Position numbers and translations under genes: made by a program | Source of the DNA: Blastochloris sp. | Lineage (GTDB): Bacteria > Verrucomicrobiota > Verrucomicrobiia > Methylacidiphilales > JAAUTS01 | Assembly: GCA_012031345.1 (NCBI GenBank) | Contig: JAAUTS010000001.1 | Span: forward strand, 1 to 60,949 | Reading direction: 5' to 3' | Length of the DNA: 60,949 nt | In this document: positions 3,621-47,525 of the stretch, piece after piece | Layout of the letters: every line of letters starts with the position of its first letter | How positions within the stretch are numbered: position 1 is the first letter of the stretch | The notes under the pieces: model-generated | Told to the model about the DNA's origin: nothing | Database searches by the model: none | The model's input: the letters and a program-made list of their open reading frames with translations, nothing else

Positions 3621-4799
3621 ATGTCCTTTCAACCTCTCGGTCTTAGCGATCCCATCATCCACGCCGTTCAACGTCTTCGTTACATCGAGCCCTCTCCCAT
3701 TCAGACCCAGGCCACGCCGATCCTGCTCGAAGGTAAAGACCTCATCGCTTCCGCCCAAACAGGCACGGGCAAAACCGCTGCCTTCACCCTGCCCATCCTC
3801 TCCAGACTGGCAGCACATCAACCCAAGACGCGCTGCCTCATTCTCGAACCAACCCGCGAACTCGCCGCTCAAGTCGTCGAGTGTCTGGAAGACTACACTT
3901 TTTTCACCGATCTCAGCTTTTGTCTGGTGCATGGCGGTGTGGGATACGGCACCCAAAATGAAAAGTTGGCCAAGCGTCCCGACATCGTGGTGGCCACGCC
4001 AGGTCGGCTTCTCGATCATCTGGAAAACAAAACGCTGAGCCTCTCCGACATCGAGTATCTGGTTCTGGACGAGGCGGACCGCATGTTGGACATGGGTTTT
4101 CTGCCGGACGTGAGCCGCATCATCCGCCAATGCCCGACGGAAAATCGTCAGACCATGCTCTTCTCCGCCACCATCCCTCCTCGGCTCCAGACCTTGGTCG
4201 GCTGGGCCATGAAAACTCCCGAAACCCTCAGCATCGGTCGCAGTGCCACTCCCGCAGAAACCGTGCGCCATGTTCTCTATCCAGTGGCCGCCGATCAAAA
4301 GTTTGAGCTGCTTTTGGCCATTCTGGAAAATCTGCACTACGAAAGCATCATCGTCTTCACCCGCACCAAAATGGGTGCGGACCGCATCTCCGGCACTCTC
4401 GAGCAGGCCGGACACAAAGTGGTCACCATCCACTCAGACCGCTCTCAAGCCGAACGCACCCAATCCCTGGCCTCATTCAAGGACGGCAGCGTAGAAGTGC
4501 TGGTGGCCACCGACATCGCCTCCCGCGGTCTGGATATTGACGATGTGACCCATGTCATCAATTACGACATCCCCGAGAATCCCGAGGACTATGTTCATCG
4601 CATCGGACGCACGGGCCGGGCCAGTCGCAAGGGAGATGCCCTGACCATCTTTACCGCAGCGGAACTTGAGTTGGTGCAGTCCATTGAGCGTTTGATTGGT
4701 GTGGAAATCGAGCGGGTCAAGTTGGACCACTTCCCCTACGTTTACACCACGCTTCTCGATCCAAAGGCCGCCAGCCGTCGCAAGCCCCGGCGTCGCTAA
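3621..4799 (+). CDS. DEAD-box ATP-dependent RNA helicase
   Basis: 392 aa. Q-motif region, AQTGTGKT (motif I), VLDEADRMLDMGF (DEAD), SAT and HRIGRTGRA (motif VI). Confidence 0.9.
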   Translation: MSFQPLGLSDPIIHAVQRLRYIEPSPIQTQATPILLEGKDLIASAQTGTGKTAAFTLPILSRLAAHQPKTRCLILEPTRELAAQVVECLEDYTFFTDLSFCLVHGGVGYGTQNEKLAKRPDIVVATPGRLLDHLENKTLSLSDIEYLVLDEADRMLDMGFLPDVSRIIRQCPTENRQTMLFSATIPPRLQTLVGWAMKTPETLSIGRSATPAETVRHVLYPVAADQKFELLLAILENLHYESIIVFTRTKMGADRISGTLEQAGHKVVTIHSDRSQAERTQSLASFKDGSVEVLVATDIASRGLDIDDVTHVINYDIPENPEDYVHRIGRTGRASRKGDALTIFTAAELELVQSIERLIGVEIERVKLDHFPYVYTTLLDPKAASRRKPRRR

Positions 4800-4911: not shown

Positions 4912-5241
4912 TTAAGCTCCTATGGCCAGCCAATGGAAGGACACGGAATAAACCAGACTTTCCCGCCAAGTGGAAATTTGAGCTCGGAAACCTTCCGGCT
5001 GAACCTGCACCACCTGCAATACCAAACGCGAGGAATGACGTTGATCCATATCAAATCCCGTCAACCCAAGCTGGACTAGGGGCACGGAGGCGAAACTTTC
5101 CGAAAAGGCAACATCCACCCAAAAACAACGCCGGTCTCCCCCATCAACTGCTGCCACATCCGCCAAAGCCCAACCCTCGGTCAATACTCCCACGCAGACC
5201 GAACCCGAAAGACTTTTCCAAGGAATGTAGGATGTGTTCAT
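4912..5241 (-). CDS. H-type lectin domain protein
   Basis: 109 aa. ...FSESFASVPLVQLGLTGFDMD...GFRAQISTW...VSFHWLAIG matches the H_lectin pattern. No signal peptide. Last gene of the 9905->4912 gene string. Confidence 0.55.
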   Translation of the reverse strand: MNTSYIPWKSLSGSVCVGVLTEGWALADVAAVDGGDRRCFWVDVAFSESFASVPLVQLGLTGFDMDQRHSSRLVLQVVQVQPEGFRAQISTWRESLVYSVSFHWLAIGA

Positions 5242-5290
5242 AAGTTTTATTTCAAAGTAATGTATGAAAGCATCAACTCAAATCAGTCTG

Positions 5291-5830
5291 CTAATATGCA
5301 TGCAGTTGGCTGATAATCAACCACTGGATAAACCCAAGAACTGCCATGTAGCTCAAACGCTTCCACCAGGGAAGATTAGATCGGAAAGCAGGGGCCAGCA
5401 TTAGCAAGAATAGTACAAACAGAGAATAAACGGGCAAATTCTCTGTATGGGCTGCATTAGTCAGTGTTTTCTCAAAAATAAGGTAAATCACCAGACTTGC
5501 CATACTCCAAAATGAGAGCAGGGCAACATGTAGTTGCACCTTTTTAGTCGAAGATAGAATAATAACTGTCACCAAAGCTACCACGATGACAAGCAGAATG
5601 AAAAAGGATGAAAATTGCTTATAAAAAGCTTCTTTAACCAAACCTAAAATAACGAAACTTTTTAATACATTCAACAGGCAGAGCACAAGACCATGCCAGT
5701 TATCCTGGGATCGTGTGTCACTATCTTCTGGAAAAGGATTTAGGGTTAAAATCCTGGTGTAGTCTTCGAGAAGACCCTTGAAAAAAACCTGCCAATCAAT
5801 CTTTGACATTGAGTTTGAAGAAATAGACAT
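5291..5830 (-). CDS. multi-pass membrane protein, unknown function
   Basis: About 179 aa from the ATG at 5830, with about 5 hydrophobic helices. Overlaps the 3' end of the upstream gene, suggesting translational coupling. Confidence 0.5.
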   Translation of the reverse strand: MSISSNSMSKIDWQVFFKGLLEDYTRILTLNPFPEDSDTRSQDNWHGLVLCLLNVLKSFVILGLVKEAFYKQFSSFFILLVIVVALVTVIILSSTKKVQLHVALLSFWSMASLVIYLIFEKTLTNAAHTENLPVYSLFVLFLLMLAPAFRSNLPWWKRLSYMAVLGFIQWLIISQLHAY

Positions 5831-6539
5831 ATGGTTTTTGTTTAAGCTCGGGACCATAAGCACAGTGAATTTCCAAAGGCTTCCCAGATTCAATGTTTAG
5901 GCTGAACCTCACCCACGAAGGCTTTGTGCGTAGAGATTTAAGATACAGGATTCTTTCCGTGCCGGGTTTTTGATCTCTTAATTGATGGAGGGCCCGGTTC
6001 AGAGTGGAAAAGGAATCTGGATCAGGGGCTAACACCGAGTGCTGCCAAAATTCCAACCTATGCCAACGAATCCATGGAGACTCATTCTTTAGAGAACTAC
6101 TACTGTGAATACTCCGATAGTTATCCACTGTTATTTTATCGTCATGTGGCAATGTAAGCGCCTTAAGATCCGCACCATCCTCTTTTTGAACATTGTTTCT
6201 GAACAGCACCAGCGGCCTGCCTTCTTGAAAGGTGCGGACGAAAACCACCTGACGGGCAACACCCGTGCTTGGTGGAACAGCCCAATAGAGTGATGTTGCG
6301 CCATGCTGACGCCTGATTTTCGCTGACCCTTGGTCCTCCAGTAAAATCCACTCGCGTTTTGGAGAATCGTTATCAACAACTATTGACGATGGAATGGCAA
6401 GTTTGAACACATCCTCCTGCCTGGGATGATCTCCCGGCTTGGCTAGGACAGGTGAAACAAATGCCCATAGACCAAGCAGTTGAAACATTCTCGCAATGTT
6501 CTTCTTCCGAACTTTCATGATATCCAATGACCCGAGCAT
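5796..6539 (-). CDS. secreted protein, unknown function
   Basis: The ATG at 6539 overlaps the stop of the hydrolase gene (TGATG). N-terminal signal-like segment KKNIARMFQLLGLWAFVSPVLA. Confidence 0.5.
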   Translation of the reverse strand: MLGSLDIMKVRKKNIARMFQLLGLWAFVSPVLAKPGDHPRQEDVFKLAIPSSIVVDNDSPKREWILLEDQGSAKIRRQHGATSLYWAVPPSTGVARQVVFVRTFQEGRPLVLFRNNVQKEDGADLKALTLPHDDKITVDNYRSIHSSSSLKNESPWIRWHRLEFWQHSVLAPDPDSFSTLNRALHQLRDQKPGTERILYLKSLRTKPSWVRFSLNIESGKPLEIHCAYGPELKQKPYVYFFKLNVKD

Positions 6540-8020
6540 CAATACCTGATTATGTTGAAAACATCGGCTGAAGGAAGACGCAGGAGCGTAATGTCAACCA
6601 CCGTGGTGCGATGGACTTGCAACAAGCCTTCCAACGCTGAACCGCTTAGAGTGTAACGCACTGGAAGATAGGCAATATCTTCTGTCTCCGGCTCCGTCGC
6701 GCTGATCTCCAAGGTACATTCCCTGACCTGGGATAATTTTGAAACCCAGGTTCCAGCCGATTTTTCAAACTGAGCCAGCCTCAAGTAAAAACAGATGCAC
6801 CCCGGAGTATGCTGGTTGACATGCTTGTCTTCAAACAACTCACGAATGGGCAGAGAGTCTGGTTGATTGACAGGTGCATCGAAAAAAACGTCGAAATGCT
6901 TGACTGGTCTTCCATCCTGATCCCGAATTCGGAAAATCACCTGGGCATGGGGATCATATTGGTTCCGGGGATCCTCCGCCCAAGGCGTCCAACCAGGAGC
7001 CTGTTCTTTGACAACCCGGTCATGACTCTCCCTGGTTGTGTCGTGAAACATTTGGACCAAAGCCCGGTAGGATTGCATGTCGTTTCTGGCAATTGAAAGT
7101 GCCTTAACCAAGAGCGGCAGGACTGAACTCTTGGTTTTACTGCCTGACACAACACCCATGTCTTCACCTCCGTGGGAGCAGAGGTAGGGAATGGCAAAAG
7201 GGATTTCTGATAATCCATTCTTGCCGTTGGAAATGTTGTTGGTCACCACGTAAACACCATCGACGTGTCCCACCCGGTTTTGAAACGAACCCTTGATGCT
7301 TTTGACCTCAGACCAAGGCATCAATGCCTTGTCAGGATCGGGAGTAATCTGGATGTAATTCCAATTCAAGTTTCCGGCGGCAACCCGAACCACACCGTCA
7401 CTGCCGTCTTCTTTGCAATATCTGATCGGATATTCATAAGCCGCAGGATTTGCCTGAGTGCCAATGATGCAATATTCGTGGATATGATAATCTTCCAGCA
7501 TCCGGTTATGCGCAAAGAGAAAGTGCCGGTGGAGGTCCAAGGTTTTTGAGGAGCCAAGTTCCAACTCACCCAAAATTTGCACACCCGGTTCCGCACCATT
7601 CTGAAGAAGGTAACGCCCCCAGCGTGCCATTTGACCTTTGCCGATATGTGCCAACCCACTGCCAAAATTGGCTCCGGCCAGGTGAATCAGGTTGATAATT
7701 GGGGATGGTTTGGGGCTGAAAAGACGAATCCAATTGCGAATCACCAGGGCACCTGTGCTGTGGACAATCACATGAAATCCTGACATCAAAAGATGTGGCT
7801 TGGATATGTGAAGAGCGCGATTTAGTGCCCGCGAGACATCGTCAAGAGTGATCCCATCTTCCATGGATATCCAGCGACTGAGATCTATTTCCTCAATCTG
7901 TGCCCCCATCTTTTGCTGCAAATCAGAAGCAAGGTCTCCGTAAATGTTTTTGATCTGGTCATAGTTCGAATCGTGGCTTTCCGCACTATAACCGTGAATC
8001 AGAAGGATGGGAGGTTTCAT
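6539..8020 (-). CDS. alpha/beta-hydrolase (lipase/esterase-type) with ~250-aa uncharacterised C-terminal domain
   Basis: 493 aa. PILLIHGYS oxyanion region, nucleophile elbow VHSTGA, candidate Asp (GSDGVVRV) and His (CSHGG). No signal peptide. Confidence 0.65.
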   Translation of the reverse strand: MKPPILLIHGYSAESHDSNYDQIKNIYGDLASDLQQKMGAQIEEIDLSRWISMEDGITLDDVSRALNRALHISKPHLLMSGFHVIVHSTGALVIRNWIRLFSPKPSPIINLIHLAGANFGSGLAHIGKGQMARWGRYLLQNGAEPGVQILGELELGSSKTLDLHRHFLFAHNRMLEDYHIHEYCIIGTQANPAAYEYPIRYCKEDGSDGVVRVAAGNLNWNYIQITPDPDKALMPWSEVKSIKGSFQNRVGHVDGVYVVTNNISNGKNGLSEIPFAIPYLCSHGGEDMGVVSGSKTKSSVLPLLVKALSIARNDMQSYRALVQMFHDTTRESHDRVVKEQAPGWTPWAEDPRNQYDPHAQVIFRIRDQDGRPVKHFDVFFDAPVNQPDSLPIRELFEDKHVNQHTPGCICFYLRLAQFEKSAGTWVSKLSQVRECTLEISATEPETEDIAYLPVRYTLSGSALEGLLQVHRTTVVDITLLRLPSADVFNIIRY

Positions 8021-8035
8021 AAATTACTTTCGCTA

Positions 8036-8823
8036 TTATTTTGCCAGGACATTCTTGATAAATTTGTCAGTTTCTATAGCCAACTTTTCAAAACCTTTAC
8101 GGTTCGGATGGATTTCGTCATTCCAATCTCCATCTTCAAGCGTTCCCCTCAAGTTCAAGTGATAAAATTTTGGGCAATCCCGCTGAAGACTGGCCAGCAT
8201 ATCGTTGAATTCATCAATCAGAATCCTGGCAATCTCACGCTGCAAAGCTGCATCACGGATTCCACGAGCCTCCATGACGGGCTTCAGCCATGGACCCATG
8301 ATTTTGAAACCAGCGATGCTCGGCCCCACGCTGCTGGGAATGACATAGTCATAACCATGGGCGATCACAGGCAGATTTTCGTTAACTCGGGAAATCGCAC
8401 GGATAAATTTGATATAAGCCTCCTCAATTCGCTTTAATTCTAAGGCAAGGCGGTTCTGGTCAATCAAAGCCTTGGCTTTCATGCCGGATTTGTACGGCTT
8501 GGGAATAAGGTAGGGCAAAGGATCCCCCAGCAAGTCATTCCCCCCCGCGCTGAACAATACCGCAGACCATTTTTGCGCCCGTATTTTTTCAATGCCTTGA
8601 GGTAATCTCCGCTCTCCACAATCGGCACTGCCTCATCCCCCGATTTCTGCAGCATCAAAGTGGCGTAGTTGAAATCCTCAAAGAGCCAGTCCGCCATATT
8701 TTTGAAAAGTGGAAAGTCAAACCACGAATCGCCTTCCACCAAAAGTCTTGGCCAGGTCGGATGTTTTTTGATCGTTCTTAAAAAGATGGCTGGCCTGGTA
8801 ACACTGGATGTGCGTTGGGTCAT
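8036..8823 (-). CDS. SGNH/GDSL-family hydrolase (frame break near 8560-8590)
   Basis: Block I LLVEGDSWFDFP (ORF 8479..8823), block II FSAGGNDLLG and block V DEIHPN (ORF 8036..8557). The two ORFs overlap in a region with A/C/T homopolymers. Confidence 0.7.
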
Positions 8824-8859
8824 ATGATAATTTTCTGGTTAAATTGATGACCGCGCCAC

Positions 8860-9264
8860 TTATTCGATGCGGATCACTGTTACTGATATTCTGCCTTTGT
8901 TGTTGAAGTAAAATCCCGAGACGTCATTGACAAAACACATGAGTTCACCGGAATGATTCGCCTTATAATCCCTTCTGGCTGAGCCAATGGTAAACGCCGT
9001 TGTCATTTTGAAGTTCTGCGTTCCCATCAGGCAAAACCACTTGTCCGAAGGTGCGCGGCGCAGCCATTCGGTCAATGTCATCAGGATATTTACGGAATCA
9101 AAACCGTCCGGAGTGCAGGGAATGGAGGCGTCACTCAAGTCTTCGAGCACCTCCGTTCTGAACTCATAAATACCACCTTGCTCGATCAAGAGTCCTGATG
9201 GGTTCCATTTTTTTTCCGCCCAAACATCAAAACTATAATTCTCGGCGGGCATGAGAGTTGTCAT
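8860..9264 (-). CDS. PA-IL/LecA-like lectin-fold protein
   Basis: 134 aa. The C-terminus ELMCFVNDVSGFYFNNKGRISVTVI parallels LecA [23 protein letters not shown] (recalled from memory). Its ATG overlaps the upstream stop (ATGA). Confidence 0.55.
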   Translation of the reverse strand: MTTLMPAENYSFDVWAEKKWNPSGLLIEQGGIYEFRTEVLEDLSDASIPCTPDGFDSVNILMTLTEWLRRAPSDKWFCLMGTQNFKMTTAFTIGSARRDYKANHSGELMCFVNDVSGFYFNNKGRISVTVIRIE

Positions 9265-9905
9265 ATCCTGATACCACGAACCGCAAATGGAACTTTAGGG
9301 ACTCCGGTCATACTCAGGGTGTTGTCATTAAGCCAATTGTAGTTGAGACCAGCGTCCATCGTATGACCCGCGTTTTGCAACGCGAGTCTGGCCGTCAGGT
9401 TGCCTTCGTGTTTGAAGTGGGCCGTGAATTGGGTTGCATAAAACGATTCGAGCACAAGCAGATCATTATCAATCCAACGCCACTTGTTTTTGTCGGTTTC
9501 TCTGAGATTCAACAATGCCTGGTGAATTTCGTGGTGAATGAACCCCTTGGTAAAACATCTGGAGGTGATGCCTGTGATCTCAATGCCAAAGGAAAATTCT
9601 GAAGTCAAAGCAGAGGTGATCGAAAGACCATACTCGGGAAGACCTCCTGTGATTTCAAATTTGCTTTTGTCCGAAACATTTAACTTGAGTGCATTTGCGG
9701 CACCGAGCGCACTGGCGCAATCAGCCTCGGTTACGCCATCTGCAATCTCCCAAGCATAACCTTCAACATGCTTGAATCTGGGATCGGACAGCCACCACTC
9801 CACTTCCAACAGGGCTCCAGGAATCAATCTTTCCGTGGGTGCTGGTATCAAATACGCACCATAACGTTGTCTCATCTCATACGCAACTTTGGTCAATCCA
9901 GCCAT
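9261..9905 (-). CDS. gasdermin N-terminal-domain-like protein (candidate pore former), no C-terminal tail
   Basis: Start chosen at the ATG at 9905, which has GAGGAGG 5 nt upstream; the track ORF extends to 9989. 214 aa, beta-rich. By eye: LIPAPTERLIPGALL, amphipathic Gly/Ser/Thr strands (FEITGGLPEYGLSITSALTSEFSFGIEITGI), DLLVLESFYATQFTAHFKHEG and TLSMTGVPKVPFAVRGIRI follow the order of gasdermin-N elements. Confidence 0.4.
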   Translation of the reverse strand: MAGLTKVAYEMRQRYGAYLIPAPTERLIPGALLEVEWWLSDPRFKHVEGYAWEIADGVTEADCASALGAANALKLNVSDKSKFEITGGLPEYGLSITSALTSEFSFGIEITGITSRCFTKGFIHHEIHQALLNLRETDKNKWRWIDNDLLVLESFYATQFTAHFKHEGNLTARLALQNAGHTMDAGLNYNWLNDNTLSMTGVPKVPFAVRGIRI

Positions 9906-10031
9906 GAACGCCTCCTCATTATTTTGGTTTTGTAGATATTTCCCATGTCTACTTGACTTTTTGATAGGCATTCTTTGAACTTCAGGCAATTAGGGCTGAT
10001 TCTCTAGTTCACACCTTTGTCACAATAATTT

Positions 10032-10655
10032 ATGAAAAAGACACGGCTACAAATTGTGGATGATCATCCGGCCATACATGTTGCTTTGAGCCACATTATG
10101 GATGCGGCCCAGTATCATCTTGCGGCCTCAGCGTATTGCGCCACAGAAGCAGTGGCTCAATACAAGACCATCCCCATAGATGCGGTCGTGCTGGATCTGT
10201 CACTTCCTAGACATAAAGGTGAAACTGTAATCGATTTTCACCGAAGAAACAAAACCAATGTGCCCATCCTGATCTTTACCGGTTACTGCGATGCCTCGAG
10301 ATTGAGGCAATGCATGAAAAAGGTGCTCTTGGTTTGGTTCTAAAACTTTCACCCGTTGATGAAATCAAACTGGCCCTGGACTTTGTTGCCCGCCAAAGAA
10401 GGCCTTATGTTTCCCCGGCCTTTCGTCCCATGCTTCAAACAATAACAACCGAGGATCAGCACCCGGTTTTGACTCCCAGGGAAAATGAAGTGATTCGATG
10501 CATTGCCCAAAGCATGAGCAACAAAGAAAACCGCCCGCCTTCTGGGTTTGAGCGAAAGCACGGTTAAAATTCACCGCTCCAATCTGATGAGAAAGCTGAA
10601 ACTCCACGACACAGCCGCCGTCACCCGCCACGCTTTGAATCTTGGACTGATTTAA
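10032..10655 (+). CDS. NarL/LuxR-family response regulator (two frame breaks, ~10320 and ~10540)
   Basis: Receiver domain (IVDDHP...VVLDLSLP...) in ORF 10032..10343. The LuxR HTH LTPRENEVIRCIAQSMSNKE... continues in a third frame as ...TVKIHRSNLMRKLKLHDTAAVTRHALNLGLI, stop at 10653-10655. Both breaks lie at A-runs. Confidence 0.75.
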
Positions 10656-10664: not shown

Positions 10665-12505
10665 TCAAGGATTGACGGCCTTGATCGAGTCAATGCGAAC
10701 CTGCCGGACATCGCCACTTTCCAGGGGCAGCTCCACGGTGTCGCCCACCTTCTTCTGCTGCAAAGCCTGACCCACCGCAGTGAGGTAAGCCACGATGCCC
10801 TTTTCCGGCGCGGAATCCCAAGCTCCCATGATTTGGTAGCTGAGTTTTTCCGAGGTCTTGAGGTCAGTCAATTCCACCGTGGTGCCGATGTTGACCAGTG
10901 ACGTGTCGGCTCCCTTGAAGTCGGTTCCTTGGGCGCGCAGCAACATGCTTTCCAGCTCCGCCCGGCGACGCATAATGACGCTCTGCATTTCCTTGGCTGC
11001 CTTGAACTCGCTGTTTTCGCGCAGATCGCCGTAGGAACGGGCCACCGCGATGTCCTTGGTGTTCTGGGGAATTTTGTTTTGGATGATGTCCTGCAACTCT
11101 TCCTTGCGCTTCTCCAAACTTTCCCAGGAGACGACCAGAGTGCTGAGATCCTTCTCTTTGTCCTTGGAAGAGGAGCCGCCGATGATCATTTCCTGCACAA
11201 AGGGGTAGAGCTTGACCAGGGCCGCCAGCACGGAACGCTTGTCAAGTTCATCAAAAATCGGACTGAGCATGATGGCCCGGGTGACATCCCGGACCTCATC
11301 GTTGCCCGCACTTTTCAACATCTCGGCAATGAGTTCTTTGCGCGTGACGAAAAGATCCTGGAGCCGCCCGGAACGCTTGCTGCCTTCCAACTGATCCAGT
11401 TCCAACACGGAAAGAATGGCGTAAAGGAGTTGAACGTTGAACAGTTTCTTGATGTCAGGATCCTTCGACTTGCAGATCCAGATGAGGAACTCGAAATGCA
11501 GGTTGCGCTCCCGGATCAAACGTTCGATGGCCGCGATGATCTCTTCCTTGCGTCCGTCCTTCTCGAAGAATCGATGATGACCTCTGCCACCCGTCCGTTG
11601 GCCATGGGCAGGATTTGCATGGTGAAGGTGGGCCAGTTGACGCCGTAGATGGCAGCGGCGCGGCCCACGGCCTTGCCCTGCTTGGAGGCGGTCAGGTTGT
11701 TGATCAGGTTAACCAACTGCTTGGGTTCACGGGGCAAAAGTTTGGTCGTGGCATTGGCCGGAATCTTGGCCTCCAACTTGGCCGCTTCAATCAACTCATC
11801 CCGCATGATGGCCAATTCCACCGCCGAGACCAATTGGGAGCTGGGAACTTTGGAGAGGGTCTCGTCAATATCCGCCACCAGGGTTTCCACCAGGGAGGCG
11901 TCTCCCAGATCTTTGGAATGCTTCAGGGTCTCTTCCAGAGCGGCCAGCTTGGCCTTGGGACCGATCACCTTGGAAACCGAAGCCACCGCCTCGGCTCCCA
12001 GATCCGGCGGAGCTTCGTGCAGGATGATGGTTTCAGAACGTTTGGTTGGCAGGGTGAAGTGTCCGTCTTTCTTCACCGCACGCTTGGCCGCGTCCCACCA
12101 CTTTTTCCAATCCGCCTTCGATACGACCGAAGGGCAGAGCACCGCCTCGATGCGATCAGGCGAAGCCGCAGGCTGGAGGCTCTTCACCACGGAACGCATC
12201 GTAGCCAGAGGATCGGTGGCCGCCTCTTTTTTGACCGCGTCCAAATCGCTCAATTTGCGGCTCTCAATGTGATCGTCTTCCAAAAGCAGCAGCGAACTGG
12301 CGGAGTATTCAAAATCCATGGGGTGTCCGGGTTTGCCGGGAAAATCAATCAGCAAACGCTTGGAGACAAAATCCCGCTCCACAATGCGTCCGGTGCCCCA
12401 GCTGCGGTGAAAGCAGCACTTTCCGGGGAGAAGTTGATCTAATTTTTGCGCCAAGTGAAGAGGCAACCGTTCTGTGTCAACCAACTGTTGTAAATCGCTA
12501 TCCAT
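10665..12505 (-). CDS. large GreA/GreB-domain protein (~613 aa; frame break near 11535)
   Basis: The C-terminal ~150 aa are GreA-like (ARSYGDLRENSEFKAAKE...IGTTVEL...). ORFs 11516..12505 and 10665..11519 join as ...VAEVIID/FFEKDGRKEEIIAAIERLIRERN if one base is restored in gattcttcgag. Confidence 0.65.
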
Positions 12506-25070: not shown

Positions 25071-28701
<3,631 letters not shown>

Positions 28702-28702
<1 letters not shown>

Positions 28703-42354: not shown

Positions 42355-42431
42355 CAATAGAGTCCTTACCTCGAGAAATAGCGACAAAACGACCCAAAAA
42401 CCAGACAAAAAGTTGGCATTATCGATTTCGG

Positions 42432-42484
42432 CAACTGGTTGCCTATTGCAAAAATCCCAACTAGTTGTCTAATATACGTTCGAT
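42432..42484 (+). other. attI region (candidate)
   Basis: Two 12-bp CAACTnGTTGnC boxes (42432-42443, 42458-42469) are followed by the core GTTCGAT (42478-42484), 7 nt before the first cassette ATG. Confidence 0.55.
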
Positions 42485-42490
42485 CAAAAT

Positions 42491-42976
42491 ATGAACAAAG
42501 AAGAGTTCAATAACCTATTTTGCGAGTGCGTGGCTCATTCGAAGTCATTTGCGCAGACAATGGTTACAGAGAAACTTTCCCCCATTGATTCATTCTATTT
42601 GGCGACAGCCCTTCACGATTCCATTGTTTTAGGACCTTTTAGCACAGCAAAAACAACCGATATTTTATATGGTGATGGCAGTTTCCCCAGATGGGTGGAT
42701 ATTAGTGTTTTAGACAGTGAGGAAGCATCAACAGTTTTTTATCTGACCCATTCAGAAGACAGAACAAGAGAGGTCGAGAAAACAACATATTTTGCGAGGG
42801 GCCAAGGCCCCTTCGGAATCAAATCTCCCATACTTCCAAAAGACTGGAGGGATGTTGAGACTTCAGGGCGATTCAGTCTGAAAGAAACAAAAAATAAACA
42901 GAAAATCGAACCAGGCGGTTCAGCCAACCGCGGTAACGCGCTTGGTTTTAGGCACACTCATTCCCGCGGTTGCTGA
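42491..42976 (+). CDS. cassette 1 hypothetical protein
   Basis: 161-aa ORF. The stop TGA lies in the L' box (gcTGAc) of attC1. Confidence 0.5.
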   Translation: MNKEEFNNLFCECVAHSKSFAQTMVTEKLSPIDSFYLATALHDSIVLGPFSTAKTTDILYGDGSFPRWVDISVLDSEEASTVFYLTHSEDRTREVEKTTYFARGQGPFGIKSPILPKDWRDVETSGRFSLKETKNKQKIEPGGSANRGNALGFRHTHSRGC

Positions 42977-42991
42977 CCGCGGACGTTCGGA
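42905..42991 (+). repeat. attC 1
   Basis: atcgaac-caggcggt-tcagccaac ... gttgctga-ccgcggac-gttcgga. Confidence 0.8.
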
Positions 42992-43000
42992 AATGAAAAT

Positions 43001-43354
43001 ATGAAACCCGTCGTCGTGAAAATACCGGTCGAGCGAATCCATGATTGGGATACTTTCCACACGGTCTTTGCCGAGATTCTTGGTTTTCCTAAGTTTTATG
43101 GTCGGAACATGAATGCATGGATTGATTGCATGACTTCTGTCGACTGCCCCGAAGATGGGATGTCGGAAGTGCATGGAACCAAGGAAGCAGGCATGATATT
43201 GGATTTGGGAGTCTGCACGGAATTCGCAAGGCGTTGCCCTCAGCAGTATGAGGCCATTCTAGACTCTGTTGGCTTCGTCAACCACCGCAGGATGGAAGCG
43301 GGAGAGGAACCCGTTCTATCTTTATCCTTCTGGAATGCACAACCACTTAAATAG
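43001..43354 (+). CDS. cassette 2: barstar-like ribonuclease-inhibitor family protein
   Basis: 117 aa. ...IHDWDTFHTVFAEILGFPKFYGRNMNAWIDCMT... parallels barstar ...[20 protein letters not shown] (recalled from memory). Confidence 0.55.
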   Translation: MKPVVVKIPVERIHDWDTFHTVFAEILGFPKFYGRNMNAWIDCMTSVDCPEDGMSEVHGTKEAGMILDLGVCTEFARRCPQQYEAILDSVGFVNHRRMEAGEEPVLSLSFWNAQPLK

Positions 43355-43360
43355 AACAAA

Positions 43361-43472
43361 TCCGAACCATGCCGTCCAGCCAACCCCTACCCGCGTCACG
43401 TCTCCTGCTCTCGCTTCGCTCGTTGGCAGGAGCCGCGCCACGGGCAGGGGTGGCTGACGGCGGACGTTCGGG
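43361..43472 (+). repeat. attC 2 (long class)
   Basis: tccgaac...cagccaac...ctcctgctctcgcttcgctcgttggcaggag...ggctgacggcggacgttcggg. Confidence 0.8.
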
Positions 43473-43478
43473 AAACAA

Positions 43479-43736
43479 ATGAGTATTATTCCTTTCTTTT
43501 CCGGGTTAATAGCTAGTGCAATTTCATTTACTTTGCTTTACAAGCGTTTCTTTGGAACAGAAAATGACTTTTGGGAATGTGTATTTTATGCATTCAAACC
43601 AGATTTCTTTTCTTGGATGGACAAGGATTTACAAAAAGATTACGGAAAATCATTAAAATTGGGATTTTTCCTTGCTATTGTATTCGGAGCGGGATTTCTT
43701 ACGTATTTAATTGTTGAAGCTAATATTTATGAATAA
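43479..43736 (+). CDS. cassette 3: small membrane protein
   Basis: 85 aa with two hydrophobic helices. Confidence 0.5.
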   Translation: MSIIPFFSGLIASAISFTLLYKRFFGTENDFWECVFYAFKPDFFSWMDKDLQKDYGKSLKLGFFLAIVFGAGFLTYLIVEANIYE

Positions 43737-43740
43737 AAAA

Positions 43741-43812
43741 TCCGAACCATGTGGTGCAGCCAAGCCCCTTTCGCCTTCGGCTTCAGTGGCTGGCTGACCA
43801 CAGACGTTCGGT
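43741..43812 (+). repeat. attC 3 (short class)
   Basis: tccgaaccatgtggtgcagccaag...ggctggctgaccacagacgttcggt. Confidence 0.8.
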
Positions 43813-43817
43813 AGAAA

Positions 43818-44258
43818 ATGAAATCTCGCGTCATCATTATAGGTCTACTCTTAGCACTCATAGGCTTGGCATGGGCAATATGGCCACGGGGCTACAGCGA
43901 GTTAGTCATCACCGATTTCTCCAGGCCAGCTCACCTCTCCGCGCACGCGCCTCTGCTTCCCTTCAGACAAGGTCTAATGTATGTCGTGATTGAAGGAAAG
44001 ATCGAAGGAAAAGGGAAATTATTGGTTTATGAGAACTCCTCAGTCGAACCCGAAACGATTCCCATTTTTGGTCCACGGGTTTATTATATATCTGGCGGTG
44101 CAGAAAATTGGTCGGATAGTGTCAGAGTTACTTTTGTGCCAGAAACCATACGGACAGGAACAATTTCGATCAGGCTCTACTGTGGTGCCTACCCAAAACC
44201 CATAGACAGAAATACCGAACAAGGTGGTGCAGCCAACCTCGCTCCGCTCGGCGGCTGA
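43818..44258 (+). CDS. cassette 4: N-terminally anchored/secreted protein
   Basis: 146 aa with an N-terminal hydrophobic helix. The stop TGA lies in the attC4 L' box. Confidence 0.5.
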   Translation: MKSRVIIIGLLLALIGLAWAIWPRGYSELVITDFSRPAHLSAHAPLLPFRQGLMYVVIEGKIEGKGKLLVYENSSVEPETIPIFGPRVYYISGGAENWSDSVRVTFVPETIRTGTISIRLYCGAYPKPIDRNTEQGGAANLAPLGG

Positions 44259-44273
44259 CCACGGACGTTCGGG
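44214..44273 (+). repeat. attC 4 (short class)
   Basis: accgaacaaggtggtgcagccaac...ggcggctgaccacggacgttcggg. Confidence 0.8.
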
Positions 44274-44281
44274 ATAAAGAT

Positions 44282-44608
44282 ATGACCATCCAAGAAAACA
44301 AAGATAAGTTCGATAATTTGCAGATGGAGCTTCTCTACCAGCATGGCGAGACGATCAAAAGGAATTTAGAGAGCCTGAACCTTCCCGCAGACAAGGTCAA
44401 AGAATTAACCGGATCTATGCTTTTCGACATTGCCTGCATCAGCGATGGATCGACCGTTATGAAGACACCTGACGGCGATCCTATACAACCTATCTTAATG
44501 TTTAGTGATGGAGAGGGTTCCGAAGACTTGATTCATGCAGGCGGAGGTCTTGGATGCATGAATATGCATTTGGAGTCGTTGATGACATTTTTGAATCCTA
44601 AAATATAA
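44282..44608 (+). CDS. cassette 5 hypothetical protein
   Basis: 108-aa ORF starting 9 nt after attC4. Confidence 0.5.
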   Translation: MTIQENKDKFDNLQMELLYQHGETIKRNLESLNLPADKVKELTGSMLFDIACISDGSTVMKTPDGDPIQPILMFSDGEGSEDLIHAGGGLGCMNMHLESLMTFLNPKI

Positions 44609-44720
44609 CCCGAACCAGGCGGTGCACCCAACGCTCACCCGCGTCACGCCTCGTGCTTGTCGCTTTGCTCCGGCACGAGTCGCGCCACGGGCGAGGCGTG
44701 GGTGACCGCGGACGTTCCCT
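44609..44720 (+). repeat. attC 5 (long class)
   Basis: cccgaaccaggcggtgcacccaac...cgcgccacgggcgagg...ggtgaccgcggacgttccct. Confidence 0.75.
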
Positions 44721-44728
44721 GAAAATAT

Positions 44729-45226
44729 ATGCCCCTTCCTCCTGATTCCATCTTTGAGCTCTCCAAAGCTATCTGGACAGAAGAGGATTTCGACCAGATG
44801 GGTTGGCATGACGCCACCGTCCATGCACTGGCATTCTCGACCGATACTTTCGAGCTGCTACTCGACATTGACTATATTTATGCATGGGTTGACCCAAAAC
44901 CTCCCGAAGAGCATTTTAATTTCTGGATCTCACCCTGCACCCTTGTTTTCTCAAATGTTTATGACTTCAGCGCCTCCATAGAATTGAGTCAAGGACTTGA
45001 AGTCAGCGACCTCTCACGGGTAGATGAGACAAAACCCAGAAACTCCGACTACATAAAAAGAGAAAAAGAATGGAAATGGATTTTTGATTGCCAACAGGGA
45101 GAGCTTTCCTTTCGTTCCGTTGGCTTTCAGCAAATTACAAGAAAAATGCCGACCCGAGGTAAAAGACAAAGTTTTTCTTGGGAGGAGAGAGGTAACCCTT
45201 GCTTCGATCGAAGCGCATACAAATAA
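44729..45226 (+). CDS. cassette 6 hypothetical protein
   Basis: 165-aa acidic ORF. No family recognised. Confidence 0.5.
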   Translation: MPLPPDSIFELSKAIWTEEDFDQMGWHDATVHALAFSTDTFELLLDIDYIYAWVDPKPPEEHFNFWISPCTLVFSNVYDFSASIELSQGLEVSDLSRVDETKPRNSDYIKREKEWKWIFDCQQGELSFRSVGFQQITRKMPTRGKRQSFSWEERGNPCFDRSAYK

Positions 45227-45229
45227 AAA

Positions 45230-45299
45230 AGCGAACCAGTCGGTTGACCCAATCCCTACAGCCTTCGGCTTCCGGGGATTGGTCACGCGGACGTTCGGC
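45230..45299 (+). repeat. attC 6 (short class)
   Basis: agcgaaccagtcggttgacccaat...attggtcacgcggacgttcggc. Confidence 0.8.
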
Positions 45300-45440
45300 A
45301 AAAGAAATGCAGCGCATCTCATGCAGATTATTTTCCATGAAAACCTATGCGTTGAAATTGATCAGTTTCGTCCACCCATTCACGGCAATCGTCGCAGGCA
45401 CACGGAGGCCATGGGAGCGTCTCGCGCTCCGCAGGAAATT

Positions 45441-45551
45441 GCCGAACCATGTCATTGAGCGAACGTGCCGAATGCTCCGGTTTTGTAATATCAATCACTC
45501 GCAACTCCCTTCTGGTCATGCTCGGCACGCCGCTCATGACTAACGTTAGAC
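45441..45551 (+). repeat. attC 7 (divergent sequence, same architecture)
   Basis: gccgaaccatgtcattgagcgaac...ccgctcatgactaacgttagac. Closes a 252-bp cassette (45295-45546) with no convincing ORF. Confidence 0.65.
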
Positions 45552-45556
45552 AGAAT

Positions 45557-46039
45557 ATGAAGACATACCATGTAGCCGTATCAGCCGAAGCATATGCGGC
45601 GGCCTCTTTTGCCCGCGCAGGCTATGAAGTTTCGGTTCAGTATGGAGCAAACCAGCCAGGCTATGACCTTGTGGCTGTGAAAGACTCAAGAATACTAAAA
45701 GTCAGTGTTAAAGGATCGCAGGACGGCGGATGGGCGCTACTTGCAAAATATAAAAAGGGAAGAAATTGGATTGAAACCGCCAAAGAGTGGCTAACCAACC
45801 AACCTGAAGAGGTCGTGATGTTTTTTGTTCAGTTTAAGGACGTTGAGTTCGCCTCTCCTCCAAGGATGTATTTAGCCAGGGCAAAAGAGGTGGCGGACCA
45901 CCTCCTTAAGGGAAGAAGCGGAAACGTTTCAACCTGCCTTCTTGAAAATTATTCCTATAAGAAGGGAGTCGGAAAGGGAACGACTGACAAGATGCCAGAT
46001 TCTTGGATTTGTTCTGAGAAAAGAATAAATCAAGTCTAA
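45557..46039 (+). CDS. cassette 8: possible PD-(D/E)XK-fold nuclease-like protein
   Basis: 160 aa from the ATG at 45557. SAEAYAAASFARAGYEV...GYDLVAVKDSRILKVSVKGS resembles an E...D...xK arrangement. Weak. Confidence 0.35.
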   Translation: MKTYHVAVSAEAYAAASFARAGYEVSVQYGANQPGYDLVAVKDSRILKVSVKGSQDGGWALLAKYKKGRNWIETAKEWLTNQPEEVVMFFVQFKDVEFASPPRMYLARAKEVADHLLKGRSGNVSTCLLENYSYKKGVGKGTTDKMPDSWICSEKRINQV

Positions 46040-46093
46040 CCATGCCAGTCAGCCAACGCGCGAAACGCGCGTGGCTGCTGGCCGACGTTCGCT
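46034..46093 (+). repeat. attC 8 (short class)
   Basis: gtctaaccatgccagtcagccaac...gtggctgctggccgacgttcgct. The ORF stop TAA lies inside R''. Confidence 0.8.
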
Positions 46094-46102
46094 GAAAATA
46101 CC

Positions 46103-46750
46103 ATGTTCAATAAAGTTTTTGATTGGTTGTATCACTATGCCTCATTTTTGCCCGGTATTGGTCTAACCATAGGATATATTGGAGCAGTTCTGTCAGAGCC
46201 TACCAGAACAGCAACATTTGTTGACCATGTGGCACACTATGAAGAACAGGAAATTGGCATTATTCCAAAATGGCATCATGAAACAAAGCCCCCAAGAGGC
46301 TTTAGTCCTGTAATAGTTATGCAGCCAAAATTAGATTCTGACGGACAGCCTGTTATACGAGAATCTCAACGAACCGTTAAAGGAAAGGGAGTTCCAACGG
46401 TTTATATAAAAGAAAAGAAAGAAATCTTTGTTTCAGAACTAAGTGAAGATAAATATACAATACGACGTATCCGCTCTGTTGGGTATCTTGTTGAGAGGGA
46501 CGAGAAATTTGTTATTAGCAGCCCGCGGCTAATGACAAAAGAAGAATTGGAAAATACTCCCAAAGGGGGGATTCGCGTGCATTATTTACCCAACATCCAT
46601 AAACGTTCTACCGGAGTGTATGAAGTGTATCACGATGTTTCATGGGACGTGAAATTTGACCCAAATTCTGTTTCGATATGGTTCGCCATTGCTGGAACAG
46701 TTTCTGGAGTCCTAATTTTTCATCTTAGGCCGATGTTTACCCAAAAATAA
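46103..46750 (+). CDS. cassette 9: membrane protein with N- and C-terminal TM helices
   Basis: 215-aa ORF. No family recognised. Confidence 0.5.
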   Translation: MFNKVFDWLYHYASFLPGIGLTIGYIGAVLSEPTRTATFVDHVAHYEEQEIGIIPKWHHETKPPRGFSPVIVMQPKLDSDGQPVIRESQRTVKGKGVPTVYIKEKKEIFVSELSEDKYTIRRIRSVGYLVERDEKFVISSPRLMTKEELENTPKGGIRVHYLPNIHKRSTGVYEVYHDVSWDVKFDPNSVSIWFAIAGTVSGVLIFHLRPMFTQK

Positions 46751-46760
46751 CATGATGAAT

Positions 46761-46881
46761 AGCGAACCATGCCGTCCACCCAACACCTACCCGTCCGGCG
46801 GCTGCCGGACCTCCTGCTCTCGCTTCGCTCGTTGGCACGAGTCGCGCCACGGGCAGGTGTGGTTGACGGCGGACGTTTTAA
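46761..46881 (+). repeat. attC 9 (long class)
   Basis: agcgaaccatgccgtccacccaac...ctcctgctctcgcttcgctcgttggcacgag...ggttgacggcggacgttttaa. Confidence 0.8.
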
Positions 46882-46925
46882 AACACTGACTCGACAAATT
46901 GAACCCTCTTTCTAGTATATCTATT

Positions 46926-47165
46926 ATGATTAAGCCTCTTTCCGAAGTCACACGCGACGCCATGGAACTCTCTGTGGATCAGCGCCTTAGCCTCGTCAGA
47001 ACTATTCTTGGCACCACAGAGTCCCACCCGGCTCCTACACACGAAGTCGATCAGGCGTGGGAGGATGAAATCGCAGATAGAATTCAGGCCGTCCAGTCTG
47101 GTCAGGCTACTGGCCGCAAGTGGGACGAAATTTTGAAGGACATCGACAGCCAATTATCCGCATGA
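46926..47165 (+). CDS. cassette 10: addiction-module antitoxin (Unstab_antitox-like)
   Basis: About 79 aa. ...AMELSVDQRLSLVRTIL...VDQAWEDEIADRIQAVQSG is the typical 'putative addiction module component' pattern. Its stop overlaps the toxin start (ATGA). Confidence 0.65.
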   Translation: MIKPLSEVTRDAMELSVDQRLSLVRTILGTTESHPAPTHEVDQAWEDEIADRIQAVQSGQATGRKWDEILKDIDSQLSA

Positions 47166-47455: not shown

Positions 47456-47519
47456 CGAACAAGATCATAGAGGCAACGCCCATCCTGCGGATGGCCGCAC
47501 CTCATGATCGACGTTCGCT
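47454..47519 (+). repeat. attC 10 (short class)
   Basis: aacgaacaagatcatagaggcaac...gccgcacctcatgatcgacgttcgct. Confidence 0.75.
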
Positions 47520-47525
47520 GAATAT

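Follow-up and report, generated by a model that had tools for sequence, protein, structure and literature searches.

Bacterial gasdermins (bGSDMs) have an adjacent protease in 43 of 50 cases, and a locus in which a gasdermin-like gene is packed together with genes for lipases and lectin-like proteins instead raises the question of what controls such a protein and what it does. We addressed this question for a stretch of DNA of 60,949 nucleotides (hereafter the window), for which an initial annotation had described a seven-gene operon that pairs a gasdermin-N-like protein with lipase-type hydrolases and lectin folds and lacks a protease.

The gene island and its regulator

The seven tightly packed, co-directional ORFs (g1–g7) occupy positions 4912–9905 on the minus strand, and together with a divergent LuxR-type regulator they make up a low-GC island (positions 5000–10500; ~47% GC versus 55%, or 40–50% versus 53–59% in the flanks). 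This gene island is foreign. Its flanks are housekeeping genes, that is, a DEAD-box helicase (3621–4799) and a GreA-like gene (10665–11519), and not a defence island. Inside the island, the GC content varies from 40% at g6 to ~49% at g4. ORF analysis recovered all seven packed minus-strand ORFs and all of the junctions given in the initial annotation: the g1 stop overlaps the g2 start (ATGA, 9261–9264), the g4 stop overlaps the g5 start (TGATG, 6537–6541), g5 and g6 overlap at 5796–5830, and the remaining spacings are 36 nt (g2–g3), 15 nt (g3–g4), and 49 nt (g6–g7). On their coding strand, no terminator was detected inside the operon. Domain profile searches found no peptidase domain in the seven ORFs or the flanks, and the window encodes no protease. 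In a PADLOC search (PADLOC-DB v2, E ≤ 0.1), none of the eight ORF pieces matched any family.

The divergent regulator (10032–10655, plus strand) matches Response_reg (E 6.7e-13) and a fragment of GerE, and lies in a region of 46% GC (10000–10499) inside the island. Its assignment as a LuxR/NarL-type response regulator is supported by these domain matches, but as given the ORF is broken by two frameshifts in the assembly. A further frameshift splits g3, as described below. Because housekeeping genes elsewhere in the window (PFOR and DPRP) are also split, the frameshifts in g3 and in the regulator probably reflect indel errors of the assembly and not pseudogenes. The intergenic region between g1 and the regulator (9906–10031, 126 bp), where divergent promoters would lie, yielded neither a convincing sigma-70 consensus nor a convincing operator repeat.

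The gasdermin-like protein g1 and its family

The first gene, g1 (9261–9905, minus strand), encodes a protein of 214 aa. Its start is most likely the ATG at 9905, to judge from a GAGGAGG Shine-Dalgarno sequence 5 nt upstream and from the homolog alignments, which begin there; initiation farther upstream, at the in-frame ATG at 9971, would lengthen the protein to 236 aa. The AF2 model (pLDDT 89.7, pTM 0.86) predicts the fold of a gasdermin N-terminal domain with its twisted beta-sheet core. When this model was compared with the PDB using Foldseek, ranks 1–14 were occupied by gasdermins only, with 7n52 as the best match (E 4.8e-6). The bacterial gasdermins 7n52, 7n51, and 7n50 matched with E values of 5e-6 to 5e-5 and TMq of 0.48–0.56, and the TrichoGSDM pore (8jyw) was also among the significant matches (E 8e-4), whereas the match to RCD-1 was weak (8jyy, E 0.6). 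TMq was ~0.5 to inactive gasdermin forms versus 0.33–0.42 to pore forms. Two long amphipathic strands in the model, residues 104–118 and 148–166, are as expected for membrane hairpins. We infer that g1 forms pores.

Sequence comparisons point in the same direction. The g1 family comprises ~80 clusters, which are metagenomic, and the two best matches of its profile among PDB sequences are full-length matches to bGSDM (8sl0/7n51) of marginal significance (hmmsearch, E 0.047); in a profile comparison with hhalign, the family aligned with residues 14–219 of the Vitiosangium bGSDM (86%, E 5e-6). None of 41 family members matched a Pfam gasdermin model, and g1 did not match the PADLOC bGSDM model. 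Johnson et al. reportedly took an HHsearch probability >0.8 to Pfam PF04598 as their criterion of gasdermin homology. The initial reading of the first gene as gasdermin-N-like is borne out by predicted structure and, with a marginal sequence signal, by profile comparison.

The family differs from its bacterial relatives in what is missing around the core. The profile alignment stops at residue 219 of the 266 in bGSDM, and in most of the 41 members the protein ends 3–4 residues past the last core strand (up to ~15 in a few); a C-terminal inhibitory peptide was not found in any of them, and g1 is not switchable by tail removal. None of the 41 has a cysteine among its first seven residues. The only cysteines of g1 are at positions 63 and 117, and the family has no conserved cysteine capable of a TrichoGSDM-like disulfide. 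The bGSDMs of Runella, Vitiosangium, and Bradyrhizobium (Johnson et al. 2022, 2024) resemble g1 in core fold, size class, cytoplasmic location without a signal peptide, and occurrence on mobile or accessory DNA; however, they carry a C-terminal inhibitory peptide that is removed by cleavage, a palmitoylated N-terminal cysteine (C3/C4), and a caspase-like, trypsin-like, or subtilisin-like protease as partner, whereas the g1 family ends at the last core strand, lacks that cysteine, and has lipases and a PA-IL-like domain as partners. Fungal RCD-1 and TrichoGSDM of Trichoplax are closer to g1 in being tail-less, that is, in consisting of the pore-forming domain only, and in their cleavage-independent activation, but they are eukaryotic and, according to Li et al. 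(2024, as cited in PMC13475620), are triggered by heteromer formation and by disulfide reduction, respectively, with neither using lipases.

Lipases and lectin-like proteins encoded with g1

The products of g1–g4 have no hydrophobic N-terminus, in agreement with the earlier statement that the first four genes lack signal peptides. Among them, g4 (6539–8020, minus strand; 493 aa) is, by sequence profile and modelled structure, a full-length PlaB-type phospholipase A. The sole PDB match of the A1 profile was PlaB (6zth, E 2e-51), the alignment of g4 with PlaB spans both domains (5–230 and 277–490) at ~23% identity, and Foldseek matched g4 to 6zti/6zth with E 3e-32 and a full-length TM of 0.71–0.76. 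As in PlaB, an N-terminal alpha/beta-hydrolase is followed by a C-terminal bilobed beta-sandwich. The initial annotation correctly took the VHSTG nucleophile motif as the mark of an alpha/beta hydrolase, but its "large unknown C-terminal domain" is rejected, being the known C-terminal domain of the characterized PlaB family. The triad Ser88 (VHSTG)/Asp208/His283, which is invariant in 28 homologs, aligns with PlaB S85, D203 (Asn in the crystallized mutant), and H251, and Tyr195, which is F or Y across the family, and Tyr201 (Tyr in 27 of the 28) align with PlaB Y190/Y196, which stack the nicotinamide (doi 10.1101/2020.09.01.246603). PlaB of Legionella pneumophila and PaPlaB of Pseudomonas aeruginosa thus have in common with g4 the two domains, the HSTG motif, the triad, and the lack of a leader. 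The genomic setting differs. We found 746 g4 homologs, mostly ~50% identical, and plaB-type genes elsewhere normally stand alone with lineage-specific neighbors such as a PIG-L deacetylase or an SSF symporter, whereas g4 shares its operon with a gene for a gasdermin-like protein. In 80 PlaB loci, a homolog of g1, g3, g5, g6, or g7 was never found beside the PlaB-type gene and a g2-like ORF was found once (L026), and the seven-gene set is not a conserved unit.

The second hydrolase, g3 (8036–8823, minus strand), falls into two ORF pieces (8479–8823 and 8036–8557), as the reading frame shifts by 1 nt at 8570–8574, an A5 run. Addition of one A restores a 262-aa SGNH/GDSL-like protein with the motifs GDSW (Ser33), SAGGND, and DEIHP, and SGNH blocks I (GDS), II (G), III (GxND), and V (DxxH) are all present only in this repaired form; in the sequence as given, the SGNH hydrolase of the initial annotation is not a single ORF. 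The repaired protein scores 28.1 bits against Pfam Lipase_GDSL_2 (E 3.5e-6), below the cut-off of 32.9.

Two products resemble lectins to different degrees. The leaderless g2 protein (8860–9264, minus strand; 134 aa), predicted to be a beta-sandwich, is weakly PA-IL/LecA-like. As a single sequence it scores 16.4 bits against Pfam PA-IL PF07828 (cut-off 22.5, E 0.0097), a sub-threshold match confined to its C-terminal 30 residues, but a three-sequence profile matched structures of the PA-IL family only (PllA, E 5e-4; LecA, E 0.14–0.33; ~50 residues). In the loop NDxxGxYxNNxG, N113, D114, Y119, N121, N122, and G124 are invariant. For g7 (4912–5241, minus strand; 109 aa, leaderless), the sequence assignment as an H-type lectin is solid (Pfam H_lectin PF09458, E 5.9e-18, 65.2 bits, cut-off 24; Helix pomatia agglutinin 2ccv, E 7e-11). 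Between them, g5 (5796–6539, minus strand) has an N-terminus that resembles a signal peptide when read from the ATG at 6518, and it did not match Pfam, NCBIfam, or PADLOC, and g6 (5291–5830, minus strand), which has the lowest GC content of the island, encodes a small polytopic membrane protein with ~4 TM-like segments and without a family match in domain profile searches. The initial calls of a secreted protein, a polytopic membrane protein, and an H-type lectin all agree with these results.

Genome context analysis of g1 homologs revealed leaderless lipases of four different families adjoining them in 4 of 13 informative contexts. An LCAT/PGAP1-like hydrolase is encoded 60 nt upstream of the g1 homolog in L084–87, and a Tle1-like phospholipase 17 nt downstream in L094 (Pfam E 1e-74), while in L101/102 the gene for a DUF900 alpha/beta hydrolase follows the g1 homolog after 2 nt (E 1.7e-36); none of these lipase partners has a signal peptide. 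The part common to L084 and L085 is only 2,088 bp long (97.9% identity) and corresponds exactly to the lipase and the g1 homolog, with unrelated flanks, so that by sequence comparison the pair behaves as a mobile two-gene cassette. Moreover, the L094 lipase carries at its C-terminus a domain homologous to g2 (E 6.6e-11). These independent loci, the mobile cassette, and the g2–lipase fusion support a linkage of g1-family proteins to leaderless cytoplasmic lipases, as the initial pairing had suggested. Several family members have no lipase neighbor, and the g1 homologs of L092/93 stand alone. Genes resembling cysteine peptidases adjoin g1 homologs in two loci only, L099 (Peptidase_C25-like, 37 bits) and L174 (Peptidase_C1-like, 24 bits); given such variable partners, some family members may still be protease-controlled. 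No homologs of g3, g5, g6, or g7 were found near the g1 or PlaB homologs examined, and a polytopic membrane protein follows the lipase–g1 pair in several related loci. The L099 locus adjoins a contractile injection system, and L101 adjoins genes for giant proteins, a cell-wall amidase, and a C39 peptidase. Defence-type genes occur near three lipase-paired loci, namely a retron type VI RT near L101 and weak ZacA/B-like and mad8/JetC-like matches near L084 and L094.

Possible roles of the island

The reading of the island that we favor, with about even credence, is a cassette for membrane attack that needs no protease and has g1–g4 as its core; we propose for it the following trigger, feed-forward steps, and role. 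The gasdermin-fold pore-former g1 would be co-expressed with the leaderless SGNH hydrolase, the PlaB-type phospholipase A, and the PA-IL-like g2; the divergent response regulator would keep the operon low or silent, and g1 would rest as a soluble monomer. After induction or another trigger, the lipases would act on the inner membrane and yield lysophospholipids and fatty acids; this action, contact of g1 with the g2 domain, or both would allow g1 to insert and oligomerize. The lipases or lectins may, as the initial annotation suggested, replace the protease/sensor arm. The pore would collapse the membrane potential and leak NAD(H), upon which, by analogy to Legionella PlaB, inhibitory PlaB tetramers would dissociate and phospholipid breakdown would turn into feed-forward lysis. 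The producer would die or lyse, to the benefit of abortive infection, with leaderless lipases and lectins released incidentally; g5–g7 would be co-transcribed accessories to which we assign no role.

Several observations count against such a cassette. The TM-scores to bGSDM are moderate (~0.5) and the sequence signal is marginal; a lipase is present in only the 4 of 13 contexts, two genes separate g1 from PlaB in the window, and no g1-family gene adjoins the PlaB homologs of 80 other genomes. As given, g3 and the regulator are frameshifted, the flanks are housekeeping genes, and lectin folds and a secreted protein are more in keeping with a function directed outward than with a suicide switch confined to the cytoplasm. 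The combination of a tail-less gasdermin with lipases hints at an undescribed bacterial control of self-inflicted membrane rupture. In an extended form that we consider unlikely, the pore would be gated by lipid chemistry and not by a protease: phospholipases recruited by a PA-IL-like domain would license insertion by remodeling the inner membrane, and the NAD(H) leak would free PlaB from its autoinhibition as a tetramer. Leaderless PlaB-type phospholipases and cytoplasmic lectins would then have in this pore their long-sought exit route.

The outward-directed function finds expression in a somewhat unlikely alternative, holin-like release resembling "type 10 secretion", in which a sacrificed subpopulation would free, through the gasdermin-like pore, a leaderless cargo directed against other cells and not against phage. 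The cargo would consist of the PlaB phospholipase, the SGNH hydrolase, the PA-IL-like protein, and the H-type lectin, with lectins targeting lipases to foreign glycans. Of the seven products, four or five lack a leader though their families act extracellularly, cell-surface sugars are the ligands of PA-IL and H-type lectins, and a dedicated response regulator is typical of regulated virulence or competition. The injection system near L099, the neighbors of L101, the membership of the L094 partner in the T6SS Tle1 toxin family, and the lack of PADLOC matches in the window fit as well, as does the surface exposure of Legionella PlaB, whose export route is not known (doi 10.1101/2020.09.01.246603). 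Release would, however, require a breach of wall and outer membrane, for which no endolysin or spanin is present; nor is there a recognizable immunity gene, the sugar binding of g2 is putative, and defence genes lie near three related loci. We know of no bacterial gasdermin that is used for secretion.

Two further readings remain. That the island is a mosaic in which only g1 and g2, perhaps with a lipase, form a unit and PlaB and g5–g7 were independently acquired would account for the stand-alone PlaB homologs with lineage-specific neighbors in 80 genomes, for the absence of g3, g5, g6, and g7 homologs from the related loci, and for the differences in internal GC; we consider it quite improbable, as the overlapping junctions and spacings of ≤49 nt speak for joint transcription and coupled translation of all seven genes, no internal terminators were found, and lipase adjacency is recurrent in the g1 family. 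Very improbable in our view is that g1 forms no pores and its gasdermin fold serves to bind lipids in partnership with cytoplasmic lipases, whose chaperone, inhibitor, or membrane-targeting subunit it would be, holding them inactive or steering them to particular phospholipids. Tight adjacency to lipases of four families, a compact resting-state model nearer to inactive than to pore conformers, and a family that lacks tail, palmitoyl-Cys, and protease yet is presumably tolerated by cells would suit such a partner, but several members have no lipase neighbor and the long amphipathic strands look like membrane hairpins. All characterized gasdermin-fold proteins are, to our knowledge, pore-formers.

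A membrane-attack cassette of the proposed kind would have counterparts among known systems. Gasdermins and phospholipases are interchangeable death effectors in bacterial CARD-NLR systems (Wein et al., PMC10312443), and CARD-NLR/protease-effector abortive-infection systems likewise deploy membrane-directed effectors of gasdermin or lipase type (Evans et al., PMC12642450); however, there a sensor NTPase and a protease license one effector, whereas in the operon studied here two effector types are encoded together, and neither a protease nor an NTPase. The L094 lipase has a bona fide catalytic domain of T6SS Tle1-type effectors (DUF2235), but neither T6SS genes nor a periplasmic Tli immunity protein are encoded nearby, and its C-terminus carries the g2 (PA-IL-like) domain; in the window, PlaB and SGNH enzymes stand in place of Tle1.

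The g1 protein and its family

The minus-strand gene g1 (9261-9905) is the first of seven packed ORFs (g1-g7) and had been described in the initial annotation as encoding a gasdermin-N-like protein. Searched as a single sequence, g1 had no match in Pfam, NCBIfam, PADLOC, or the PDB, and a word-indexed protein search returned g1 itself alone. Its family emerged when 1.84 billion cluster representatives were searched exhaustively with HMMER; 82 proteins matched at E <= 1e-3, mostly 201-232 aa long and metagenome-derived. A hand-made degenerate DNA pattern for g1 retrieved 79 stretches from metagenome contigs, 3 of them true family members. A tblastn search of plasmids and phages with g1 gave zero matches, and Foldseek against viral structures found none. 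Because the family is missed by Pfam, NCBIfam, PADLOC, and word-indexed search, library-based searches likely overlook modules of this type. Three distant relatives (P0203, P0205, and P0208) bear the precomputed Pfam accession PF26164.1, and part of the wider family may therefore already be catalogued under PF26164.

An AlphaFold2 model of g1 was built from an alignment of 41 family sequences (mean pLDDT 89.7, pTM 0.86). In a Foldseek search of the PDB with this model, ranks 1-14 were all gasdermins, headed by the bacterial gasdermins (bGSDMs) of Runella, Vitiosangium, and Bradyrhizobium (E 4.8e-6 to 5e-5, TMq 0.48-0.56) and followed by TrichoGSDM, GSDMD, GSDME, and GSDMB entries; the model resembles their inactive conformers more closely than their pore conformers. 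The two best matches of the g1-family profile among PDB sequences were Vitiosangium bGSDM, over the full length (E 0.047), and hhalign aligned the family with a segment of the same protein at 86% probability (E 5e-6). The gasdermin-fold assignment is thus supported by two independent lines, the predicted structure and profile comparison, the sequence signal alone being marginal, and the structural check proposed with the initial annotation upheld its call, a bGSDM being the best match.

To our knowledge, every characterized bacterial gasdermin is silenced by a C-terminal peptide together with a palmitoyl group and is freed by an adjacent protease. The bGSDMs have a short C-terminal inhibitory peptide and conserved palmitoylated Cys3/Cys4, and 43 of 50 have a neighboring protease (Johnson et al., doi 10.1101/2021.06.07.447441). 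In contrast, most members of the g1 family stop 3-4 residues past the last core beta-strand (motif VPFAVRG), which aligns with position 219 in the Vitiosangium protein of 266 aa. Cysteine is present within the first seven residues in 0 of the 41 aligned members, and none is conserved at any position. Unlike the usual bGSDM context, the window's operon and its flanks contain no peptidase domain detectable in domain searches, as the initial annotation had stated for the operon. Because these three defining features are missing, we do not class g1 as a bGSDM and instead place the family in a putative new branch of the gasdermin fold that is bacterial and tail-less. Its architecture is similar to that of RCD-1 and TrichoGSDM, which are eukaryotic and cleavage-independent (PMC13475620).

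Partner genes and their recurrence in other genomes

Downstream of g1, the gene g4 (6539-8020) had been read as an alpha/beta hydrolase with a large C-terminal domain of unknown type, a description that has to be replaced, as g4 matches a PlaB phospholipase over both domains. The g4 family comprises 746 homologs from many phyla, mostly ~50% identical, and its profile has a single match among PDB sequences, Legionella PlaB (E 2e-51). An AF2 model of g4 superimposes on 6zti/6zth with TM 0.71-0.76 (E 3e-32), and Ser88 (in VHSTG), Asp208, and His283 occupy the positions of the PlaB triad and are invariant across the family. PlaB is leaderless and outer-membrane associated, with an unknown export route, and inside the cell it is inhibited via NAD(H)-mediated tetramerization (doi 10.1101/2020.09.01.246603). 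The two nicotinamide-stacking tyrosines of PlaB correspond to conserved aromatic residues in g4.

The other partners vary in how clearly they can be assigned. The LecA/PA-IL-like call for g2 (8860-9264) is weak with the single sequence, but a profile of g2 and two homologs matches PA-IL-family lectins and nothing else (PllA, E 5e-4); this profile has no match in viral contigs. g3 (8036-8823) is SGNH-like by motifs, with a sub-threshold Pfam score, and g7 (4912-5241) is a clear H-type lectin, as originally proposed. The predicted secretion of the g5 product (5796-6539) and the polytopic nature of g6 (5291-5830) also hold, given a signal-peptide-like N-terminus and ~4 TM segments, respectively; neither protein matched a family in the domain libraries.

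The seven genes do not form a conserved unit. tblastn and the g1-family HMM identified no g1, g3, g5, g6, or g7 near the PlaB homologs of 80 genomes, and no homologs of g3 or g5-g7 were found around g1 homologs. Only 1 of the 80 PlaB loci has another window gene: in a Phycisphaerae MAG (L026, 10001-11973) the PlaB homolog and a 145-aa ORF that resembles g2 (PA-IL-like) converge, which suggests a PlaB/g2 link independent of the gasdermin-like gene. Otherwise the partners of PlaB reflect lineage-specific synteny alone (PIG-L deacetylase, SSF symporter) and are unrelated to the g1-g7 operon. At L017 and ~28 other Verrucomicrobiae/Chthoniobacterales loci, genes for an 834-aa PIG-L (GlcNAc-PI de-N-acetylase-like) protein and then a sodium:solute symporter come after the PlaB homolog, an order that is probably clade-specific synteny.

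A smaller core does recur, consisting of g1 homologs with lipases and the g2 domain. Among 13 informative g1-family contexts, 4 include a lipase-type alpha/beta hydrolase in the gene string, and these represent four Pfam families: PlaB (g4) in the window, an LCAT/PGAP1-like lipase 60 nt upstream of the g1 homolog at L084-87, a Tle1-like (DUF2235) lipase 17 nt downstream at L094 (E 1e-74), and a DUF900 hydrolase 2 nt downstream at L101/102 (E 1.7e-36). None of these lipase partners has a signal peptide. Chance immediate adjacency to any alpha/beta hydrolase is, as a rough estimate, a few percent per locus, and against this background estimate from general knowledge the three independent non-window lipase cases in ~12 contexts are unlikely to be coincidental.

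Two further observations tie these genes together. L084 (8572-10657) and L085 (8570-10657) have 2,088 bp in common (97.9% identity) and nothing else, and this segment consists exactly of the LCAT/PGAP1-like lipase gene and the g1 homolog. Its flanks are unrelated, with ZacA/ZacB-like genes in one context and metal efflux and RtcB/RtcR genes in the other; the lipase and the g1 homolog therefore move as a cassette, within which no mobility gene is recognizable. At L094 (8001-10209), where the g1 homolog/lipase pair lies between two tyrosine integrases, homology to g2 of the window extends over the C-terminal 160 residues of the Tle1-like lipase (29% identity, E 6.6e-11). Across two unrelated loci, this domain fusion connects g1 and the g2 domain with a lipase. 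Further copies of the g2 domain were found neither in the lipase partners of L085 and L101 nor in ~180 loci.

A polytopic membrane protein is frequently encoded 3' of the g1-homolog/lipase pair, comparable to g6 in the window. Some of the remaining g1-family genes stand alone, and two contexts have cysteine-peptidase-like neighbors (C25 in L099, C1 in L174). At L099/L100 (1-10181, Bacteroidetes MAG GCA_016192075.1), a distant 204-aa family member has a Peptidase_C25-like (clan CD) protein after it and directly adjoins a gene cluster for a contractile injection system (sheath, tube, gp19, VgrG-like); the arrangement may serve the injection system as a device for lysis or release under protease control. 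At L101 (8001-14751), two giant ORFs (~2,060-2,080 aa, no Pfam match) precede the g1-family gene, the DUF900 hydrolase gene, and a gene for a 415-aa polytopic membrane protein; ~3 kb further, past an amidase and a C39-like peptidase, are genes for an HTH protein and a retron type VI reverse transcriptase.

Possible mechanism and biological role

Since the g1 family keeps the pore-forming fold and has lost the peptide, the palmitoylated cysteines, and the protease, its control must differ from that of bGSDMs, and its recurrent association with leaderless phospholipases suggests lipid- or partner-dependent activation as an alternative. From the folds and families, the gene packing, the loss of the canonical control elements, and the links that recur through gene neighborhood and fusion, we infer a protease-independent gasdermin-phospholipase membrane-attack cassette, to which we give an even chance of being correct. 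In such a cassette g1 would be soluble in the resting state, and the trigger for its insertion would come from the partner lipases and/or the g2 domain. The resulting pore would dissipate the membrane potential and let NAD(H) leak, and in a feed-forward step the loss of NAD(H) would relieve the autoinhibition of PlaB, leading to phospholipid breakdown and lysis.

Two roles are compatible with such a cassette. Gasdermins and phospholipases are established, interchangeable death effectors in bacterial CARD-NLR systems (PMC10312443), and by this analogy a cell-death or abortive-infection role is favored. Lipase-paired g1 relatives lie near a retron type VI reverse transcriptase (L101, E 4e-68), near weak ZacA/ZacB-like matches (L084), and near weak mad8 and JetC/LmuB-like matches and two integrases (L094). 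PADLOC recognized nothing in the window, and the operon is flanked by housekeeping genes. Further features suit a lytic-release function at least as well: the lectins are leaderless, g5 is a predicted secreted protein, a dedicated regulator is present, the partner at L094 is of the Tle1 type, and one relative lies beside a contractile injection system. Two other candidates were rejected. A role in immunity to lipase toxins, like that of Tli, does not fit g1, which lacks both a signal peptide and a lipobox and adopts the gasdermin fold. An acylation switch, in which a palmitoyl-thioesterase acts on a palmitoylated gasdermin, was prompted by a weak Palm_thioest match of g4 and is ruled out by the PlaB type of g4 and by the absence of a conserved cysteine in the g1 family.

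The families of PlaB, the H-type lectins, and the SGNH hydrolases were known before, and novelty lies in the putative tail-less gasdermin branch with its lipase coupling. In the literature covered, which leaves many subscription-only papers outside, searches turned up neither gasdermins in lipase/phospholipase operons nor a tail-less or cleavage-independent bacterial gasdermin. If the proposed mechanism is true, two classes of membrane-death effectors would cooperate and not substitute for one another, and cleavage-independent gasdermin activation, with a fungus and a placozoan as its known examples so far, would extend to bacteria. The g1-lipase coupling could also bear on how PlaB-type phospholipases exit the cytoplasm.

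Gene packing, genomic island, and sequence quality

Our ORF reading of the window gave seven minus-strand ORFs running in one direction over 4912-9905, with the same junctions as annotated initially: an ATGA overlap of g1 and g2 (9261-9264), gaps of 36 nt between g2 and g3 and 15 nt between g3 and g4, a TGATG overlap of g4 and g5 (6537-6541), overlapping g5 and g6 ORFs (5796-5830), and a gap of 49 nt between g6 and g7. The start of g1 is most likely the ATG at 9905; GAGGAGG precedes it, and homolog alignments begin there. A LuxR/NarL-type response regulator (10032-10655) is divergent from g1. The GC content is 40-50% over ~5000-10500, regulator included, and 53-59% in the flanks, and the block is bordered by housekeeping genes for a DEAD-box helicase and a GreA-like factor. 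Given its low GC and its housekeeping neighbors on both sides, the block is a predicted horizontally acquired island; scans for promoters, terminators, and repeats across it gave nothing informative.

Two genes of the island are broken in the assembly. The reading frame of g3 shifts by 1 nt within an A5 run (8570-8574), so that the SGNH hydrolase is not a single ORF as first read, but adding one A restores a 262-aa protein carrying the expected GDSW, SAGGND, and DEIHP motifs. The regulator is present as described, with its frame broken twice, at ~10300 and ~10525. Decay into pseudogenes is disfavored: the housekeeping gene for pyruvate:ferredoxin oxidoreductase (PFOR, 25291-28702) is split by frameshifting into at least two pieces and the photolyase-related DPRP gene (56804-58385) into two. 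Because these are split in the same manner, assembly indel errors are more likely than gene decay for g3 and the regulator. The assembly appears indel-prone, which bears on every pseudogene call within the window.

The protein with a GreA/GreB domain (10665-11519) is unusual in carrying ~125 additional N-terminal residues that match no Pfam family, and its gene overlaps the stop codon of a 329-aa ORF upstream by 4 nt. Another low-GC island (42400-50000, 47-49% GC) has many small plus-strand ORFs, among them a Barstar-family immunity protein (43001-43354, E 5e-12) directly after a 161-aa ORF without a family and a PD-(D/E)XK-like ORF (45449-46039); by its gene content, it looks like a toxin/immunity-type array.
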